Assembly: GCA_964360095.1 (NCBI GenBank)
Contig: CAYHVY010000001.1
Span: 1 to 37,603 of the forward strand
Reading direction: 5' to 3'
Source: an uncultured Candidatus Peribacteria bacterium
Lineage (GTDB): Bacteria; Patescibacteriota; Gracilibacteria; UBA1369
DNA: 37,603 nucleotides
Position numbers and translations under genes: made by a program. The stretch's first letter is position 1. Each line of letters opens with the position of its first letter. The notes beneath the pieces are model-generated. The model saw nothing but the letters and a program-made list of their open reading frames with translations, was not told where the DNA came from and made no database searches. This document shows, one piece after another, positions 7,460 through 37,603 of the stretch.

Positions 7460-8581
7460 ATGGCAATATTTAAACGCTATCTTATTCAACAGGTTGAGAA
7501 AGATCTCCAAAGGAAAATGGTCTTTGTTGGAGGACCGCGACAAGTTGGTAAAACAACTCTGTCAACACATACCAAATTTTCCGACAAAACAGGATATTTA
7601 AACTGGGATATCGCAGAACATAGAGAAAAAATCCTCAGACAGCAATGGCCTGCAACTCAATTGTGGATATTTGATGAAATTCACAAATACCACCAATGGC
7701 GTAATTTGCTAAAAGGGCTATATGATGAGTATAAAGGAAGTCAAAAAATTCTTGTTACAGGCAGCGCAAATTTGGATATATATCGTCATGGAGGCGATTC
7801 CCTTCAGGGACGTTACCATTATTTACGGTTACATCCCTTGTCTGCCGCTGAATTAAAAATACATTCTTCCAAAGAATTGCTTAATTTGTTGGAACTTGGC
7901 GGTTTCCCTGAACCCTTTTTTCAAAGCAAAAAAATTGAGGCAAAACGCTGGTCACGCGAATATCGCACAAGGCTCATTCAGGAAGATTTGAGATCTCTTG
8001 AGCGTATTCATGACATCGGCAAGGTTGAACTTTTGATGTTGAGGTTACCGGAGCTTGTCGGATCACCCCTGTCCATCAATGCAATCCGTGAAGACCTTCA
8101 GGTAAGCCATAAAACAATGGCAACCTGGCTCCTTGTCCTGGAGAAACTGTATGCCATTTTTCGTCTTTCACCATTTGGCGCACCGCGTATTCGTGCCGTC
8201 AAAAAAGAACAAAAACATTATCATTTTGACTGGACATTAATTGAAAATAGCAGCATTCGTTTTGAAAACATGGTGGCATGCCATCTTCTCAAATGGGTAC
8301 ATTATGAACAGGATGTGAAAGGGCGTGATCTGGAATTGCGATATTTTCGAGATACCAATGGAAAAGAAATTGACTTTGTCATTATTGAAAAATTAAAGCC
8401 AATTATGGCCATTGAATGCAAATGGGAAGACGGCCCTGTCTCCAAAGCTCTTTCTTATTTTAAATTGCGTTTTCCGGCATGCGAAATGTGGCAAATCAGC
8501 GCTATTGGAAAACAAGATTATCGTTCAAAAGAAAAAATAAGAGTCTCGCCCGCGATCGGATTTTTAGCAGGACTGGTATAA
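7460..8581 (+). CDS. COG1373-type AAA ATPase with a C-terminal DUF4143 / PD-(D/E)xK-like domain
   Basis: Walker A is GGPRQVGKTT and Walker B is LWIFDEIH. The C-terminal EIDFVI...AIECKW resembles a nuclease D...ExK motif. The track's GTG start at 7415 lies inside the promoter, so the ATG at 7460 is preferred. Confidence 0.7.
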   Translation: MAIFKRYLIQQVEKDLQRKMVFVGGPRQVGKTTLSTHTKFSDKTGYLNWDIAEHREKILRQQWPATQLWIFDEIHKYHQWRNLLKGLYDEYKGSQKILVTGSANLDIYRHGGDSLQGRYHYLRLHPLSAAELKIHSSKELLNLLELGGFPEPFFQSKKIEAKRWSREYRTRLIQEDLRSLERIHDIGKVELLMLRLPELVGSPLSINAIREDLQVSHKTMATWLLVLEKLYAIFRLSPFGAPRIRAVKKEQKHYHFDWTLIENSSIRFENMVACHLLKWVHYEQDVKGRDLELRYFRDTNGKEIDFVIIEKLKPIMAIECKWEDGPVSKALSYFKLRFPACEMWQISAIGKQDYRSKEKIRVSPAIGFLAGLV

Positions 8582-16167: not shown

Positions 16168-18231
16168 ATGGCTAATATATATGCTGAAATTCTTTTATCA
16201 CGAAAAGTGGGAACAAATACCAACACTTTGACATACAGGGTGCCGGATGGACTTAAAGCTGTGCTTCAAAAAGGCAATATTGTCGGAATTGGCTTAAGAA
16301 ATAAGAAAACACGTGGTGTCGTAGCTAGTATTCATGAACATAAACCAGCATATGAAACGAAAGAGATTCTTGAAGTCGTTCAAAAGGCGGCGCACCTGAG
16401 TCCATGGCAGATTGAACTTCTTTTTTGGATGTCTGATTATTATTTTTGCCCTCCGCACAAGGTTTTAAAACTGTTTTTCCCAAATACGATCAGTCAAAAG
16501 AAAAAGCTGCCGCAGTGGCTGCCAAACGCGGAAGAAACACTATGTCAAAATCAAGGTAGGGAACAAAAAATTTTGTTCCCTACCTTGATTTTAACGACAG
16601 AACAGGAGCAGACCTTTGAAACCATCCTTAAAACGAACAAAAAAACCATTCTTTTGCACGGTATTACCGGTTCAGGAAAGACCGAAATCTATCGCCGGCT
16701 TGCGGCAAATCAAATTCAACAAAACAAACAAATACTGATTTTGGTACCGGAAATTTCATTGACTCCTCAAACTTTTCAGAATTTCAGGGAAGAATTTGGC
16801 AACGCGATTGCCCTTCTCCACAGCCAATTAACTGCAAAAGCAAAAGAAAAACATTGGTATGACATTTACCACGGTGAAGCAAAGATCATCATTGGATCGC
16901 GCTCGGCGCTGTTCGCGCCGTTCGCCGACTTGGGCATGATTGTGATGGACGAAGAACATGAATTTTCCTATAAACAGGACCAGTCGCCGCGTTATCATGC
17001 CCGGGATGTCGCTATAAAAATGGCTGAACTTTTAGGAATAAAATGTGTTTTAGGAAGCGCCACGCCTGCGCTGGAAACATATTACAACGCCGCTCAAGGC
17101 CACTATGAGCTGGTTACATTAAAACAACGCATACAAAAGCAAAACATTGTGACGCTGCCGGCGGTTACAATCATTGATCTGCGGGAAGAAATCCGCAAAA
17201 AAAACTTTTCCATTTTCAGTGAACTTCTCATCCAAAAAATAACCGAAAAACTTGAAAAACAAGAGCAGATCATTCTTTTTTTGAACCGCCGCGGCGCCGC
17301 CTGCGCCATCCTGTGCCGGGAATGCGGACATATTGAAAAATGCGACAACTGCGATGTGGCCATGACATATCATAAAAACTTAACGGTAGAGAGGGTGATT
17401 TTGCCAGCACAAAGGCTTATTTGCCATCATTGCGGAAGTATAAAAAACATTCCCCTGCTCTGCCCAAAATGCGACAGCGCTTTTATTCGCTACATTGGTC
17501 TGGGCACACAGCGCATTGAAGAAGAGATTAAAAAAATATTTCCAAAAGCGCGCATTTTGCGGGCTGACAAGGACACAACCAGCCAGCGCGGCAGCTTTGA
17601 AAAGCTTTACAATGCGTTTAAAAATCATGAGGCGGACATTCTTATTGGCACACAGATGATTGGTAAAGGCCTTCATTTGCCTCAGGTCAGCCTGGTTGGT
17701 GTTATTTTGGCTGATTTAAGCCTGACTATACCGGATTTTCGGAGCGCAGAGCGGACATTCCAGATTCTCACGCAGGTAGCGGGCAGAGCCGGTCGGGAAG
17801 CCAAAAAAGGCGAAGTCGTCATTCAGACTTATTTACCGGAAAATTATGCCATTCAAAAGGCAATAGAACACGATTATGCGGGTTTTTTTGAGGAGGAAAT
17901 GAAAGTCCGAAAAACGTTCGCGTATCCTCCAATAAATAAACTCATTAAATTGACTTTTATTGATAAAGATGCCAAAAAATGCCTACAGAAAGCCAAAAAC
18001 ATGCTGGACATTCTCAACGAAACCGTTCAAAAAAATGATCTGAAAAACGCCGTAACATCTATAACAAATTATCCAGCTCTGATTACAAGATTAAAAAATG
18101 AATACCGCTGGCATATCTTAATCACCGGCCAAAATCCTGCTTTGTTGCTGAAGGGTGTCTCTGAAAATGGATCAAAAATCCTGCATGATGTGGATGTAAG
18201 GATTGATGTAGATCCGACGAGTGTTGTGTAA
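16168..18231 (+). CDS. priA: Primosomal protein N' (replication restart helicase PriA)
   Basis: Walker A is GITGSGKTEIY and the DEEHE box is present. The Cys-rich zinc region reads CRECGHIEKCDNCD...CHHCGS...CPKCDS. Confidence 0.9.
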   Translation: MANIYAEILLSRKVGTNTNTLTYRVPDGLKAVLQKGNIVGIGLRNKKTRGVVASIHEHKPAYETKEILEVVQKAAHLSPWQIELLFWMSDYYFCPPHKVLKLFFPNTISQKKKLPQWLPNAEETLCQNQGREQKILFPTLILTTEQEQTFETILKTNKKTILLHGITGSGKTEIYRRLAANQIQQNKQILILVPEISLTPQTFQNFREEFGNAIALLHSQLTAKAKEKHWYDIYHGEAKIIIGSRSALFAPFADLGMIVMDEEHEFSYKQDQSPRYHARDVAIKMAELLGIKCVLGSATPALETYYNAAQGHYELVTLKQRIQKQNIVTLPAVTIIDLREEIRKKNFSIFSELLIQKITEKLEKQEQIILFLNRRGAACAILCRECGHIEKCDNCDVAMTYHKNLTVERVILPAQRLICHHCGSIKNIPLLCPKCDSAFIRYIGLGTQRIEEEIKKIFPKARILRADKDTTSQRGSFEKLYNAFKNHEADILIGTQMIGKGLHLPQVSLVGVILADLSLTIPDFRSAERTFQILTQVAGRAGREAKKGEVVIQTYLPENYAIQKAIEHDYAGFFEEEMKVRKTFAYPPINKLIKLTFIDKDAKKCLQKAKNMLDILNETVQKNDLKNAVTSITNYPALITRLKNEYRWHILITGQNPALLLKGVSENGSKILHDVDVRIDVDPTSVV
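16547..16592. repeat. 46-nt near-perfect palindrome (REP-like GTAG...CTAC hairpin) in frame inside priA
   Basis: AAAATCAAGGTAGGGAACAAAA-aa-TTTTGTTCCCTACCTTGATTTT has 22-nt arms. It encodes QNQGREQKILFPTLIL in the linker before the helicase Walker A. Confidence 0.8.
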
Positions 18232-21764: not shown

Positions 21765-21804
21765 TTTGTTGTAGAGCGCAGGCATGCCTGCGCTCTACAA
21801 CAAA
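21765..21804. repeat. Perfect 40-bp palindrome (GTAG...CTAC core) downstream of pyrG; possible terminator or REP-like element
   Basis: TTTGTTGTAGAGCGCAGGCATGCCTGCGCTCTACAACAAA equals its own reverse complement. The ATG at its centre is the track start (21784) of the next ORF. Confidence 0.8.
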
Positions 21805-32736: not shown

Positions 32737-32765
32737 GTAAGGAACGGTTTGAAACCGTTCCTTAC
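32737..32765. repeat. 29-nt GTA...TAC hairpin between the riboflavin kinase stop and the murE start
   Basis: GTAAGGAACGGTTTGAAACCGTTCCTTAC has the same length and architecture as 37170-37198. It contains the riboflavin kinase TAA stop. Confidence 0.75.
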
Positions 32766-35989: not shown

Positions 35990-37603
35990 CTACGGTTTCT
36001 GACGAATTATAATATCCAAATTAGCTCCCGGAATATCCACCACGCGAATACCACGTAAAAGGGCTTCGTAATTTTTCTCAATGGCTTCAATACGAATATC
36101 CAGTTTTTTTACCGCTTTTTCGTAAAAATCCAGAATCTGCTGTAGAGCCGAAAGACGAGCTTTTAAAGCTGTCTGTTTTTGAGCAACATCAACAAAACTC
36201 TGAAGTAGAAAATTTGCTTTTTCGCCGGCAAGACCTTCCAAAGACGCAAAAAAGTCCTGTTCAAGATTTTTTCTGTCAGGTCCAAGACTGTTAAAAGAAA
36301 TCTTCAAATCATCAATCTGCAAACCAAGTTCCTTAATAATTCTCGCGCTATTAGTGCGAACATTTTTAATTTTGCCAAGATAATCGGCAAGTTTAGAATC
36401 GCGCTGCGATGTCTGGTTTAACATGGCATACACATCTGTATCATACAGACTTTTGAGCTCACGGAGATTATGAATATACTCAATAAAAAGAGTTGCTCTT
36501 GCAAGCATATCTTTATATTGTCCATAATGATAAGCGGCCGTAATACCTGTTTCGCCTGCGACTGCAGGCTCGGCAAGTTTTCCAAAATAAAAGGCGTTTT
36601 TTATTGATGGAGTAACAACGTCTGTCAACGAACCGCTGTTTTTCGCAAAGATATAAGCGGTTCTGATTCCCCACGCGCGCAAAAATCCTTCATCTACACG
36701 GATTTCAACTGGCGCGGGAGGTGTTTTTGATTGGAAAAAAGCCATTATTTGACCATATGCAGATCTGCCGATATTGACCGCGATCCCGCTCGCAAACAAA
36801 AATCCCAAAAAAACAACAACTGCTGTAAGAACCACATATTTGAGGCGCAAATGCGCTCCCGCAAAAGCGGCGCCGTTTCCAAACTTTTTCTTAAAACCCG
36901 CTGAAAAACTGCCGCCAACCCCGGCTTTGGCCGCACCGCCAGTAGATTTTTCCTGTATTTCAGCGGCCTCAGCATGATCACTTAGCTCCTCCTGCGTAGA
37001 AATCTCCTGCTGATTGATAGGCACGGATTCTTCCACAAATTCTTCCTGCTCAATGATTTCAGGAGCGGTATTTTCCTCGGCTTCAGTAGGTGCGGGCTTC
37101 AAATCCACCCCTACGTCATGGGATGGAAAAAGCTCCGGAAATGGCTCTTTTGCTTCGTATTCGGGAGAGGTAGGGGCAGGTTTCAAACCCGCCCCTACCT
37201 CTTGAGGTTCAGGCTGCGGTTCTGGAGGCACGGACACGAATTCAGATTCCGGCTGGACAGTTGAAGGTTGAATATCGGACAATGACGGCTCTATCACGGC
37301 AGGCTCTTTTTTCGCTTCTGGTTCTGGCTGCACCACGGAACGCGGATCCGAGTTCCCTACGTCAGGGTTTTTTAATTCTTGCGCTTCTTCTGTGGAATGA
37401 AGGTCTTCGTTCCCTACGTTGGTTTCTTGAGGCGGAGGTCCAATGAAAGTGTGGTGCTGAACAGACGGATAAATGTCTTCCAGGGACTCCGTCAACGGCA
37501 AAGGCGCAAGATCTTGTACCTCTGCTTTTTGCGATTCCGATCCTGGTTCTAGCGGTAATTGTGTTTTTTCCTTTGAAGTTTTTTTAACTGTTTTTTTCTT
37601 TTC
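35990..37603 (-). CDS. Hypothetical membrane-anchored protein with a Pro/Glu-rich N-terminal region (5' end outside the window)
   Basis: The frame stays open from the TTG at 37501 to the window edge (EKKKTVKKTSKEKTQLPLEPGSESQKAEVQDLAP...). It has one TM segment (YVVLTAVVVFLGFLFASGIAV) followed by a helical C-terminal domain. Confidence 0.6.
   Translation of the reverse strand, partial: EKKKTVKKTSKEKTQLPLEPGSESQKAEVQDLAPLPLTESLEDIYPSVQHHTFIGPPPQETNVGNEDLHSTEEAQELKNPDVGNSDPRSVVQPEPEAKKEPAVIEPSLSDIQPSTVQPESEFVSVPPEPQPEPQEVGAGLKPAPTSPEYEAKEPFPELFPSHDVGVDLKPAPTEAEENTAPEIIEQEEFVEESVPINQQEISTQEELSDHAEAAEIQEKSTGGAAKAGVGGSFSAGFKKKFGNGAAFAGAHLRLKYVVLTAVVVFLGFLFASGIAVNIGRSAYGQIMAFFQSKTPPAPVEIRVDEGFLRAWGIRTAYIFAKNSGSLTDVVTPSIKNAFYFGKLAEPAVAGETGITAAYHYGQYKDMLARATLFIEYIHNLRELKSLYDTDVYAMLNQTSQRDSKLADYLGKIKNVRTNSARIIKELGLQIDDLKISFNSLGPDRKNLEQDFFASLEGLAGEKANFLLQSFVDVAQKQTALKARLSALQQILDFYEKAVKKLDIRIEAIEKNYEALLRGIRVVDIPGANLDIIIRQKP
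37086..37114. repeat. Degenerate copy of the GAGLKPAPT-type hairpin element, in frame
   Basis: GTAGGTGCGGGCTTCAAATCCACCCCTAC encodes VGVDLKPAPT on the minus strand. Confidence 0.6.
37166..37202. repeat. 37-nt REP-like hairpin (GTAG...CTAC) in frame inside a CDS
   Basis: AGAGGTAGGGGCAGGTTT-C-AAACCCGCCCCTACCTCT has a single A/C mismatch that becomes a G-U pair on the coding (minus) strand. It encodes EVGAGLKPAPTS. Confidence 0.8.

Follow-up and report, generated by a model that had tools for sequence, protein, structure and literature searches.

Why would a short, almost perfect DNA palindrome be translated, twice within the same gene, as part of a membrane protein? The question arises at one end of contig C1 (CAYHVY010000001.1) of an uncultured Candidatus Peribacteria bacterium, a member of the Patescibacteria or Candidate Phyla Radiation (CPR), whose 1.0-Mb genome (41% G+C) is assembled in 118 contigs and is 94% complete. 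The window analyzed here is the 37,603-nt stretch of that contig. An original prediction, made from the sequence alone, described a 37-nt near-perfect palindrome with a decayed neighbor, both lying in frame in the disordered part of the open reading frame (ORF) 35990-37603, and we confirmed this description. The two copies are very probably double-foot repetitive extragenic palindromes (REPs), selfish elements of the type tied to subclass 2.4 of the tyrosine transposases associated with REPs (RAYTs), that are tolerated in the disordered linker of a conserved CPR membrane protein. We established their membership in a REP family by sequence, the turnover of copies at ~19 other intragenic sites, their location in predicted disorder, and a phylum-wide association with RAYT-like genes. 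Both the element type and its habit of lying in frame have already been described, and the locus is a well-documented new example.

Two neighboring REP copies in one reading frame

The features of the host gene are as follows.

35990..37603, minus strand: host gene, its 5′ end lost at the contig end; the full-length protein of 606 amino acids (P0001) is encoded on contig L140
37166..37202: intact element, a 29-nt double-foot REP core at 37170-37198 (GTAGGGGCAGGTTTCAAACCCGCCCCTAC) whose flanks continue the palindrome for 4 nt at either end (AGAG/CTCT)
37086..37114: decayed copy of the same core type (GTAGGTGCGGGCTTCAAATCCACCCCTAC), with 25 of 29 consensus positions and the minus-strand reading D-VGVDLKPAPT-E
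37337..37360, minus strand: relic of a second core type, coding strand GTAGGGAACTCGGATCCGCGTTCC, translated VGNSDPRS
37394..37417, minus strand: relic of the GTAGGGAACGAAGATCTTCGTTCC core type, coding strand GTAGGGAACGAAGACCTTCATTCC, translated VGNEDLHS
36734..36853, minus strand: predicted transmembrane (TM) helix, P0001 residues 320-359, sequence YVVLTAVVVFLGFLFASGIAV

The intact element consists of two 18-nt arms (37166-37183 and 37185-37202) that are 94% complementary across a 1-nt gap, and its minus strand is translated as E-VGAGLKPAPT-S. Its core agrees with the pan-bacterial consensus at 28 of 29 positions, the base of its stem is made of three G-C pairs (GTAG-GGG...CCC-CTAC, read directly in the sequence), and 100 dinucleotide shuffles of the window produced no 29-mer core like the one at 37170-37198. 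The minus strand, which is the mRNA sense, is predicted to fold with -33 kcal/mol (z = -6.2) and 17 continuous pairs; the plus strand reaches -30.7 kcal/mol (z = -5.1) and has one A:C mismatch, which is therefore a G:U pair on the sense strand. The claim that the single stem mismatch is a G-U pair on the coding strand was thus borne out by folding both strands. A search of Rfam returned no RNA family for the palindrome, just a spurious match to a long non-coding RNA (E = 0.014).

The decayed copy is 80% identical to the intact one over 35 nt and folds no better than shuffled sequences (z = -0.8), and three of the five differences between the two are synonymous in LKPAPT. Both are translated within the single open frame 35990-37603 on the minus strand, as the peptides EVGAGLKPAPTS and DVGVDLKPAPTE, and their starts lie 84 nt, or 28 codons, apart. 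The copies had been described as tandem. A tandem duplication of an 84-nt unit was nevertheless rejected: they are separate neighboring copies, because the similarity between them stops ~6 nt outside the element.

Two relics lie on the N-terminal side of this pair. The one at 37337-37360 has kept its GTAG foot and a 20-nt palindrome with one mismatch and has lost the 3′ CTAC, and the one at 37394-37417 has the core type that occupies both focal sites in the sister species. Altogether, four GTAGGG feet are found on the coding strand of the ORF within 303 nt (Poisson P ~7e-8 per window at the genome-wide rate).

A disordered linker older than the elements

A protein search found the full-length host protein on L140, an independent ENA contig from a Hainich groundwater assembly, which is 98.97% identical to the window over 1643 nt. 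All 17 differences fall within 36047-36206, and the N-terminal region with both palindromes is identical in the two. The divergent tract itself (160 nt, in the conserved C-terminal domain) differs by ~10% between the window and L140, the rest of the 1643 nt being identical, and it resembles a tract of recombination or gene conversion between strains.

The protein has a basic N-terminus, a long acidic and proline-rich disordered region, one TM helix and a helical C-terminal domain, and matched none of the Pfam or NCBIfam families. In an AlphaFold2 model of P0001 built on 13 homologs, residues 58-318 have a predicted local distance difference test score (pLDDT) below 50 and no secondary structure; the TM helix (320-359) comes next, and residues 432-586 form a confidently predicted helical domain. 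The four element copies, at residues 132-139, 151-158, 205-214, and 233-242, all lie within the low-pLDDT stretch, and the TM helix (36734-36853) divides this element-bearing region from the conserved C-terminal domain (35993-36733).

One ortholog per genome was found in all 25 family and order relatives searched. Each has the same layout, with a conserved C-terminal domain and an acidic and proline-rich stretch of 200-400 residues without conserved sequence. Since all these relatives have the disordered region without these elements, the region is older than the elements and was not made by them. The elements probably persist there because such a linker tolerates almost any sequence. In metagenomes, a search for orthologous alleles with P0001 gave 369 pattern matches and no relative, and nothing matched a degenerate DNA pattern built on the conserved EAKEPFPELFP anchor.

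A genus-specific family of palindromes

The focal copies belong to a large family of double-foot palindromes, which have a stem based on G/C pairs and a minute loop between their 5′ GTAG and 3′ CTAC. A palindrome scan of the whole genome found ~83 GTAG...CTAC palindromes of 28-29 nt (83-91, depending on the detection filter) on many contigs. The 83 copies start with GTAG (or GTAA) and end with CTAC (or TTAC), 55 of them are perfect, and they fall into at least eight core types, for example GGAACGGTTTNAAACCGTTCC, GGAACAAAAATTTTTGTTCC, AGACGCATTGCAATGCGTCT, and GGACAATCCTAGGATTGTCC. The focal core is a rare subtype, with two intact copies and one decayed copy in this genome. The window holds further members of the family.

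32737..32765: perfect 29-nt palindrome (GTAAGGAACGGTTTGAAACCGTTCCTTAC); no open frame of at least 100 codons there (longest 69)
16544..16595, plus strand: member in priA, core GTAGGGAACAAAAAATTTTGTTCCCTAC (16556-16583) with 10-12-nt palindromic flanks
21765..21804: 40-nt perfect palindrome, core GTAGAGCGCAGGCATGCCTGCGCTCTAC

The copy in priA is in frame, in the linker between the 3′BD and helicase domains.

A strict pattern for the family matched 52 times in this genome and 49 times in the sister species G001, the only same-genus genome, and not at all in 58 of the 59 other family and order relatives; the reversed pattern, used as a control, gave 0 or 1 matches. With a looser pattern (0-4 matches for its reversed control), 83 of 401 Patescibacteria genomes matched, 25 of them with at least eight copies, and the genome studied here had the most, 60. 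The palindromes have multiplied in a genus-specific burst.

Around the core, the flanks form inverted repeats that are private to each copy, which extend the palindrome perfectly by a mean of 5.3 nt around intragenic copies and 6.3 nt around intergenic ones, where chance would give ~0.3 nt. The only flank positions conserved across the family are -1 (T) and -2 (Y). We also observed nested palindromes, in which one GTAG...CTAC element lies exactly in the center of another (C59:1895-1953, C40:4592-4644, C72:2160-2213), which suggests that hairpin tips are preferred entry points.

Copies inside genes and their turnover

Many copies are translated. Open frames of at least 180 codons contain 42 copies, and 29 of these have at least 45 codons on each side. 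Long open frames are nonetheless depleted of them, as 54% of copies lie in such frames against 85% of random positions. REPs are defined as predominantly extragenic, and this family departs from that definition with 29-42 of its 83 copies in coding frames. Four of the six reading frames of the element are free of stops (two of three per strand are open and the third contains TAG), and both open frames are in use, one read as VG... and the other as ...P[TY]. The host genes encode PriA, DnaE, UvrC (twice), RecF, LigA (where HHH_2 is split), a DinG-like helicase, FtsK, Der, a Mur ligase, and transketolase.

The age of these insertions was assessed by searching G001 with a concatenated query of 28 host segments, followed by protein and DNA alignments. 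At ~19 of 24 compared intragenic sites, the element is absent from G001 while both flanks align well as protein; most insertions are therefore lineage-specific. The only other focal-type copy of the genome is found in frame in the linker of FtsK (VGAGLKPTPT) and is absent from the FtsK of G001. There, the sister has GTG..CCAACC where our genome has GTA-core-CCTACC, for a net gain of 18 nt. The same ftsK gene shows a separate peculiarity: an in-frame TAA lies between the 4TM/linker part and the motor domain (L002 1660-1662; G000:C7, ~7545-7547), after which the frame continues, and the sister has TCC (Ser) at this position within a single 802-amino-acid frame. The TAA could reflect a split gene, a pseudogene, readthrough, or a sequencing error.

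The sister ortholog of the host gene itself (G001, L129, truncated by its contig) keeps the anchor YEAKEPFPELFP between the two focal sites and has another core at both. Site 1 reads VGNEDIRSG, then GMKQPAPA, which in its sequence looks like a relic of the focal type. Site 2 reads VGNEDLRSG and is followed by three tandem 18-nt units derived from the right arm. On the L129 coding strand (nt 121-198; G001:C146), the right arm plus GGT has been amplified to these three units (ENFRSG, EDIRSG, DDLRSP), so that in the sister ortholog a tandem repeat of peptides is emerging from a REP arm. The sister carries other cores at both sites, and the VGAGLKPAPT-type peptides are therefore not conserved. The situation of one site with two cores was seen between the sister species at both focal sites and in LigA; the focal sites are either insertion hot spots or places of core exchange.

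The focal core in roughly 15 phyla

The focal 29-mer extends far beyond the genus. A scan of one genome per species, covering at least 120 loci with phyla tallied by record title, placed it in roughly 15 phyla among the matches listed, including Chloroflexota, Thermodesulfobacteriota, Pseudomonadota, Nitrospirota, Planctomycetota, Omnitrophota, Actinomycetota, Acidobacteriota, Bacteroidota, and Patescibacteria. In most of 130 instances from many phyla, similarity ends sharply at GTA...TAC and the flanks are unrelated; these cross-phylum copies have no palindromic flank extension. When 24 of the genomes were counted, the 29-mer (up to two mismatches) was present in 1-287 copies per genome, with none for the reversed control; an Omnitrophota genome of 1.6 Mb has 287, and Lamprocystis purpurea DSM 4197 has 207.

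About half of the exact 29-mer copies lie in long open frames, read as VGAG[FL]KPAPT or RGGF[EQK]TRPY. The statement in the original prediction that GAG(F/L)KPAPT-type peptides occur in proteins of uncultured bacteria therefore proved right, for long ORFs from the same range of phyla. Two cases that were checked lie in real genes, one in the linker between the CheW and receiver (REC) domains of a CheA-type kinase and one in an MMPL transporter. A search of the available papers found no mention of the 23-mer variants or of the peptides GFKPAPT, GLKPAPT, GFQTRPY, RVSNPPL, and GFETRPY.

One identical 29-mer in so many phyla would mean that a REP-RAYT system spreads between phyla. A phage vector for such spread is unsupported, as the 29-mer was found in only 23 stretches of 2.9 million viral contigs. 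In an Anaerolineae metagenome-assembled genome (MAG; L099 26-48, 5634-5656) and a Chloroflexi MAG (L111 196-224, 4285-4313), the core lies within longer species-specific repeats that form inverted pairs around ordinary operons. Paired 29-mers bounding a transposon were rejected as an explanation for these two loci, the enclosed genes being housekeeping genes (GNAT, a MiaB-like enzyme, mannosidase, glycogen synthase, ROK, and GH57).

RAYT-like genes and the proposed mechanism

TnpA_REP enzymes bind single-stranded REP hairpins, require the GTAG foot, and cleave and rejoin DNA, and the route of REP dissemination is still unresolved (Corneloup et al. 2021, PMC8266576). In the account of Quentin et al. 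(2018, BMC Genomics 19:475, PMC6006769), double-foot GT[AG]G...C[TC]AC REPs are tied to TnpA_REP/RAYT subclass 2.4 (group 4 of Bertels) and scattered across phyla, the canonical long REP of this subclass has a stem base of three consecutive G-C pairs, its RAYTs carry the motifs NH[IFV]H, WQ, and YIxNNP, and a REP in frame inside the RAYT gene is unique to it.

The sister species encodes at least two full RAYT-like copies, plus fragments. In NCBIfam they match "REP-associated tyrosine transposase" best (E = 4e-16), and they carry NHVH/NHFH, WQ, and YIINN[SP], the motifs of TnpA_REP subclass 2.4 (PMC6006769); the copy on contig C8 has one palindrome in frame, between HuH and Y. Across Patescibacteria, NF047646-like genes were found in 22 of 23 palindrome-rich genomes and in 5 of 23 palindrome-free ones (Fisher P = 4e-7). 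Outside CPR the link is weak: 21 of the 24 genomes counted for the 29-mer contain RAYT-like genes, but so do 6 of 14 control genomes. A tblastn search of the 120 cross-phylum loci found no RAYT gene adjoining the focal 29-mer. In L178 and L182, single palindromes lie ~1.3-1.4 kb from RAYT genes.

RAYT-like genes are multi-copy in Patescibacteria of ~1-2 Mb, with 11-19 matches (G329, G103, G370, G421, G261) and up to 19 in a 1.1-Mb genome; the RAYTs described for Proteobacteria, by contrast, are single-copy. In these multi-copy genomes, several RAYT-like genes match as two halves in one frame, a pattern that suggests in-frame insertions. Other NF047646 matches lie within frames of 1006-1415 amino acids (L186, at G329:C1:200725-201144; G370:C85:4063-4521; G370:C118:3127-3615; G329:C5:11446-11865), and the frame of L186 starts like a class I aminoacyl-tRNA synthetase. 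In other Patescibacteria, a transposase domain may be embedded in frame in host genes.

A mechanism can be proposed on this basis. The elements would have entered the long, disordered, acidic and proline-rich linker by a DNA-level writing process. A subclass 2.4-type RAYT, an HUH enzyme, would nick the single-stranded hairpin at its GTAG foot and so start copying. The RAYT gene would since have been lost from the genome or left unassembled, and the copies seen today would be the survivors, all of them insertions into tolerant segments that left the frame intact. In this view, VGAGLKPAPT is a by-product of translation; the peptide lacks conservation, and the older of the two copies is in decay.

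Several observations weigh against an identification as RAYT-mobilized REPs. Neither PF01797, NF047646, nor tblastn detected a Y1/RAYT gene in the genome's own assembly (94% complete, 118 contigs), although at this completeness its absence from the genome is not proven. The RAYT-like proteins of the sister score below the NCBIfam cut-off (59 versus 80 bits). The RAYT genes of the sister and of 10 other Patescibacteria loci are not flanked by palindromes within ~1.5 kb, and 13 of the 15 RAYT loci searched had none in that range, so that no classical REPtron is apparent. The focal copy that is intact is near-perfect even though the sister's site holds an apparent relic of the same type, which requires renewal or re-insertion. 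Finally, the net length gain of filled over empty sites, judged by eye, ranges from a few to 42 nt and is mostly well below 28-29 nt; being variable and mostly shorter than the element, it is unlike a simple cut-and-paste of a fixed unit.

How the copies are written, and what else they might be

The length gains bear on a different mechanism, one that leaves the identity of the element undisputed. It is possible, although we hold it to be doubtful, that the copies were written by template switching during replication or repair, or by short-patch gene conversion, primed by microhomology at an element arm. Resident codons would then be overwritten, one flank would be copied inverted by fold-back, and cores would be swapped through their GTAGGG/CCCTAC ends. 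Net additions are indeed mostly smaller than the element, and several empty sister sites already hold parts of its termini or an arm, as in FtsK, at C59:3958 (GTAGGAC), and at C27:7970 (AGTGACAAT, which matches the left arm). The private inverted-repeat flanks of the copies (5.3 and 6.3 nt versus ~0.3 by chance) point in the same direction. At C25:7143, a left flank that pre-existed in G001 recurs in reverse complement as the right flank AGCAATCGT, which G001 lacks, and at C72:3520 an imperfect inverted repeat pre-existed and was later perfected. Different cores at one site between the species, at both focal sites and in LigA, would also follow from such copying, and there is an established model in which inverted repeats become perfect through template switching (Lavi et al. 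2018, PMC5941160). However, these cases are anecdotal, alignments are ambiguous in poorly conserved linkers, and the lengths are biased as only in-frame survivors are visible. Moreover, the strong phylum-wide association with RAYT-like genes argues for an enzyme at some step, and the cross-phylum copies of the focal core lack flank extensions. Private flanks, flank origin, added length, and nested copies fit microhomology-primed fold-back copying better than the pasting of a fixed unit, on what is so far anecdotal evidence. As a tentative extension, the double-foot REPs of this CPR lineage might be exchangeable cassettes that spread by copying rather than by cut-and-paste; separately, a REP-RAYT system might spread between phyla.

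The proposal that the insertions were exapted, with the peptide serving as a useful linker and the mRNA hairpin pausing translation or acting in regulation, is much harder to sustain, and we consider it quite unlikely. It can draw on the -33 kcal/mol sense-strand hairpin of the intact copy, with G:U at its single mismatch, and on the synonymous nature of three of the five differences between the copies in LKPAPT. However, exaptation as linker sequence was not borne out by the sister species, which has other peptides (the VGNEDLRSG-type core) at both sites. The second copy is decaying and no longer folds, relatives all have the disordered region without the elements, and elsewhere this DNA is translated in the other open frame or is intergenic. 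Nor does the family show a bias toward G:U on the sense strand that would betray selection on an RNA hairpin: mismatches of intragenic copies comprise 8 G:U, 10 A:C, and 12 others, and the focal-type copy in FtsK has an A:C mismatch on its sense strand. The G:U of the focal copy is thus a one-in-two outcome and no sign of selection for RNA pairing. The predicted mRNA hairpin might all the same pause translation.

Even less can be said for a genuine repeat at the protein level, that is, a short linear motif whose palindromic DNA is incidental. Four V-G-x... motifs do lie in one disordered region, but the 29-nt palindrome is identical to a repeat with up to 287 copies in unrelated genomes, and copies also occur outside genes and in another frame, which makes this explanation highly improbable. 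There is next to no chance that the palindromes are an assembly artefact: although a contig end lies 400 nt from the palindrome in an assembly fragmented into 118 contigs, the independent ENA contig, which comes from another assembly, does not differ anywhere in the palindrome region, a contig end is found within 300 nt of only 5 of the 83 family copies (7% expected), cultured isolates (Lewinella cohaerens DSM 23179, Lamprocystis purpurea DSM 4197) and finished chromosomes from long reads contain the same 29-mer, and a 37-nt palindrome is short relative to usual short-read lengths.

Implications

Identification of the focal copies as double-foot REPs explains a recurring annotation oddity: the VGAG[FL]KPAPT and RGGF[EQK]TRPY peptides of hypothetical and real proteins in uncultured bacteria stem from the translation of one REP hairpin. 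Annotators should mask or flag such segments before homology searches, domain calls, and selection tests. From a biological perspective, a 1-Mb CPR genome tolerates much selfish palindromic DNA within essential genes (PriA, DnaE, UvrC, RecF, LigA, FtsK) as well as in a membrane protein. If the REPs were indeed exchangeable cassettes, they and their ~30-40 translated copies per 1-Mb genome would be a steady source of new linker and disordered sequence in CPR proteins. A spread of REP-RAYT systems between phyla would be contrary to the usual picture of vertically inherited, lineage-specific REPINs. Should cassette exchange and copy-writing hold true, these elements would offer a tractable case for how REPs spread.

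Comparison with known systems

The closest known elements are the double-foot REPs of subclass 2.4, with which the palindromes share the 5′ GT[AG]G foot, its 3′ C[TC]AC reverse complement, the stem base of three G-C pairs, and the occurrence in many phyla (Quentin et al. 2018, PMC6006769). Judged against that same description, they differ in that the assembly has no RAYT, that RAYT-like genes are multi-copy in many Patescibacteria of ~1 Mb, that the RAYT loci examined are mostly unflanked, that a third to a half of the copies are intragenic, and that the flanks are palindromized. Our literature search found no paper on REPs in CPR, and CPR hosts were not met in the accessible part of Quentin et al. 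(2018, PMC6006769).

The GTAG-tagged REP superfamily described by Di Nocera, De Gregorio, and Rocco (2013, BMC Genomics 14:522, PMC3733652) includes intragenic REPs that encode extra peptides; these often lie in replication and repair genes, and their insertion was argued to be neutral in flexible linkers. The palindromes of 20-40 bp, the GTAG tag, the extra peptides, and the replication and repair hosts are all found here as well (PMC3733652). In the families of that account, however, GTAG is an unpaired tag at one end, whereas here it pairs with CTAC (PMC3733652). Di Nocera REPs are predominantly extragenic in their species, and some of the families are common to distant organisms (PMC3733652). 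Here, by comparison, one identical 29-mer core is found at high copy in roughly 15 phyla among the matches listed.

In Pseudomonas and E. coli, REPIN-RAYT systems (Bertels and Rainey 2011; Corneloup et al. 2021, PMC8266576) likewise rely on a GTAG foot needed by an HUH tyrosine enzyme acting on single-stranded hairpins. Their group 3 REPs are short perfect palindromes, and REP abundance correlates with the presence of RAYTs (PMC8266576). Their mobile unit, however, is an inverted REP doublet with a spacer, and their RAYT is single-copy, whereas the unit described here is a single symmetric hairpin in which the REP equals its inverted counterpart (iREP).

Finally, the Rickettsia palindromic elements (RPEs) are palindromic repeats of roughly 100-150 bp. 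RPE-1 and its relatives are, like the elements described here, selfish palindromes of a reduced genome that insert in frame and are translated as extra segments. RPEs are confined to Rickettsia and lack GTAG...CTAC feet except in the short RPE-4/6, whereas the present palindromes measure 28-29 nt and occur in Patescibacteria and many other phyla. RPE-4/6 have been classed as CGTC REPs (Di Nocera et al. 2013, PMC3733652). The element that is translated twice in this membrane protein thus works like an RPE and belongs to a different family.

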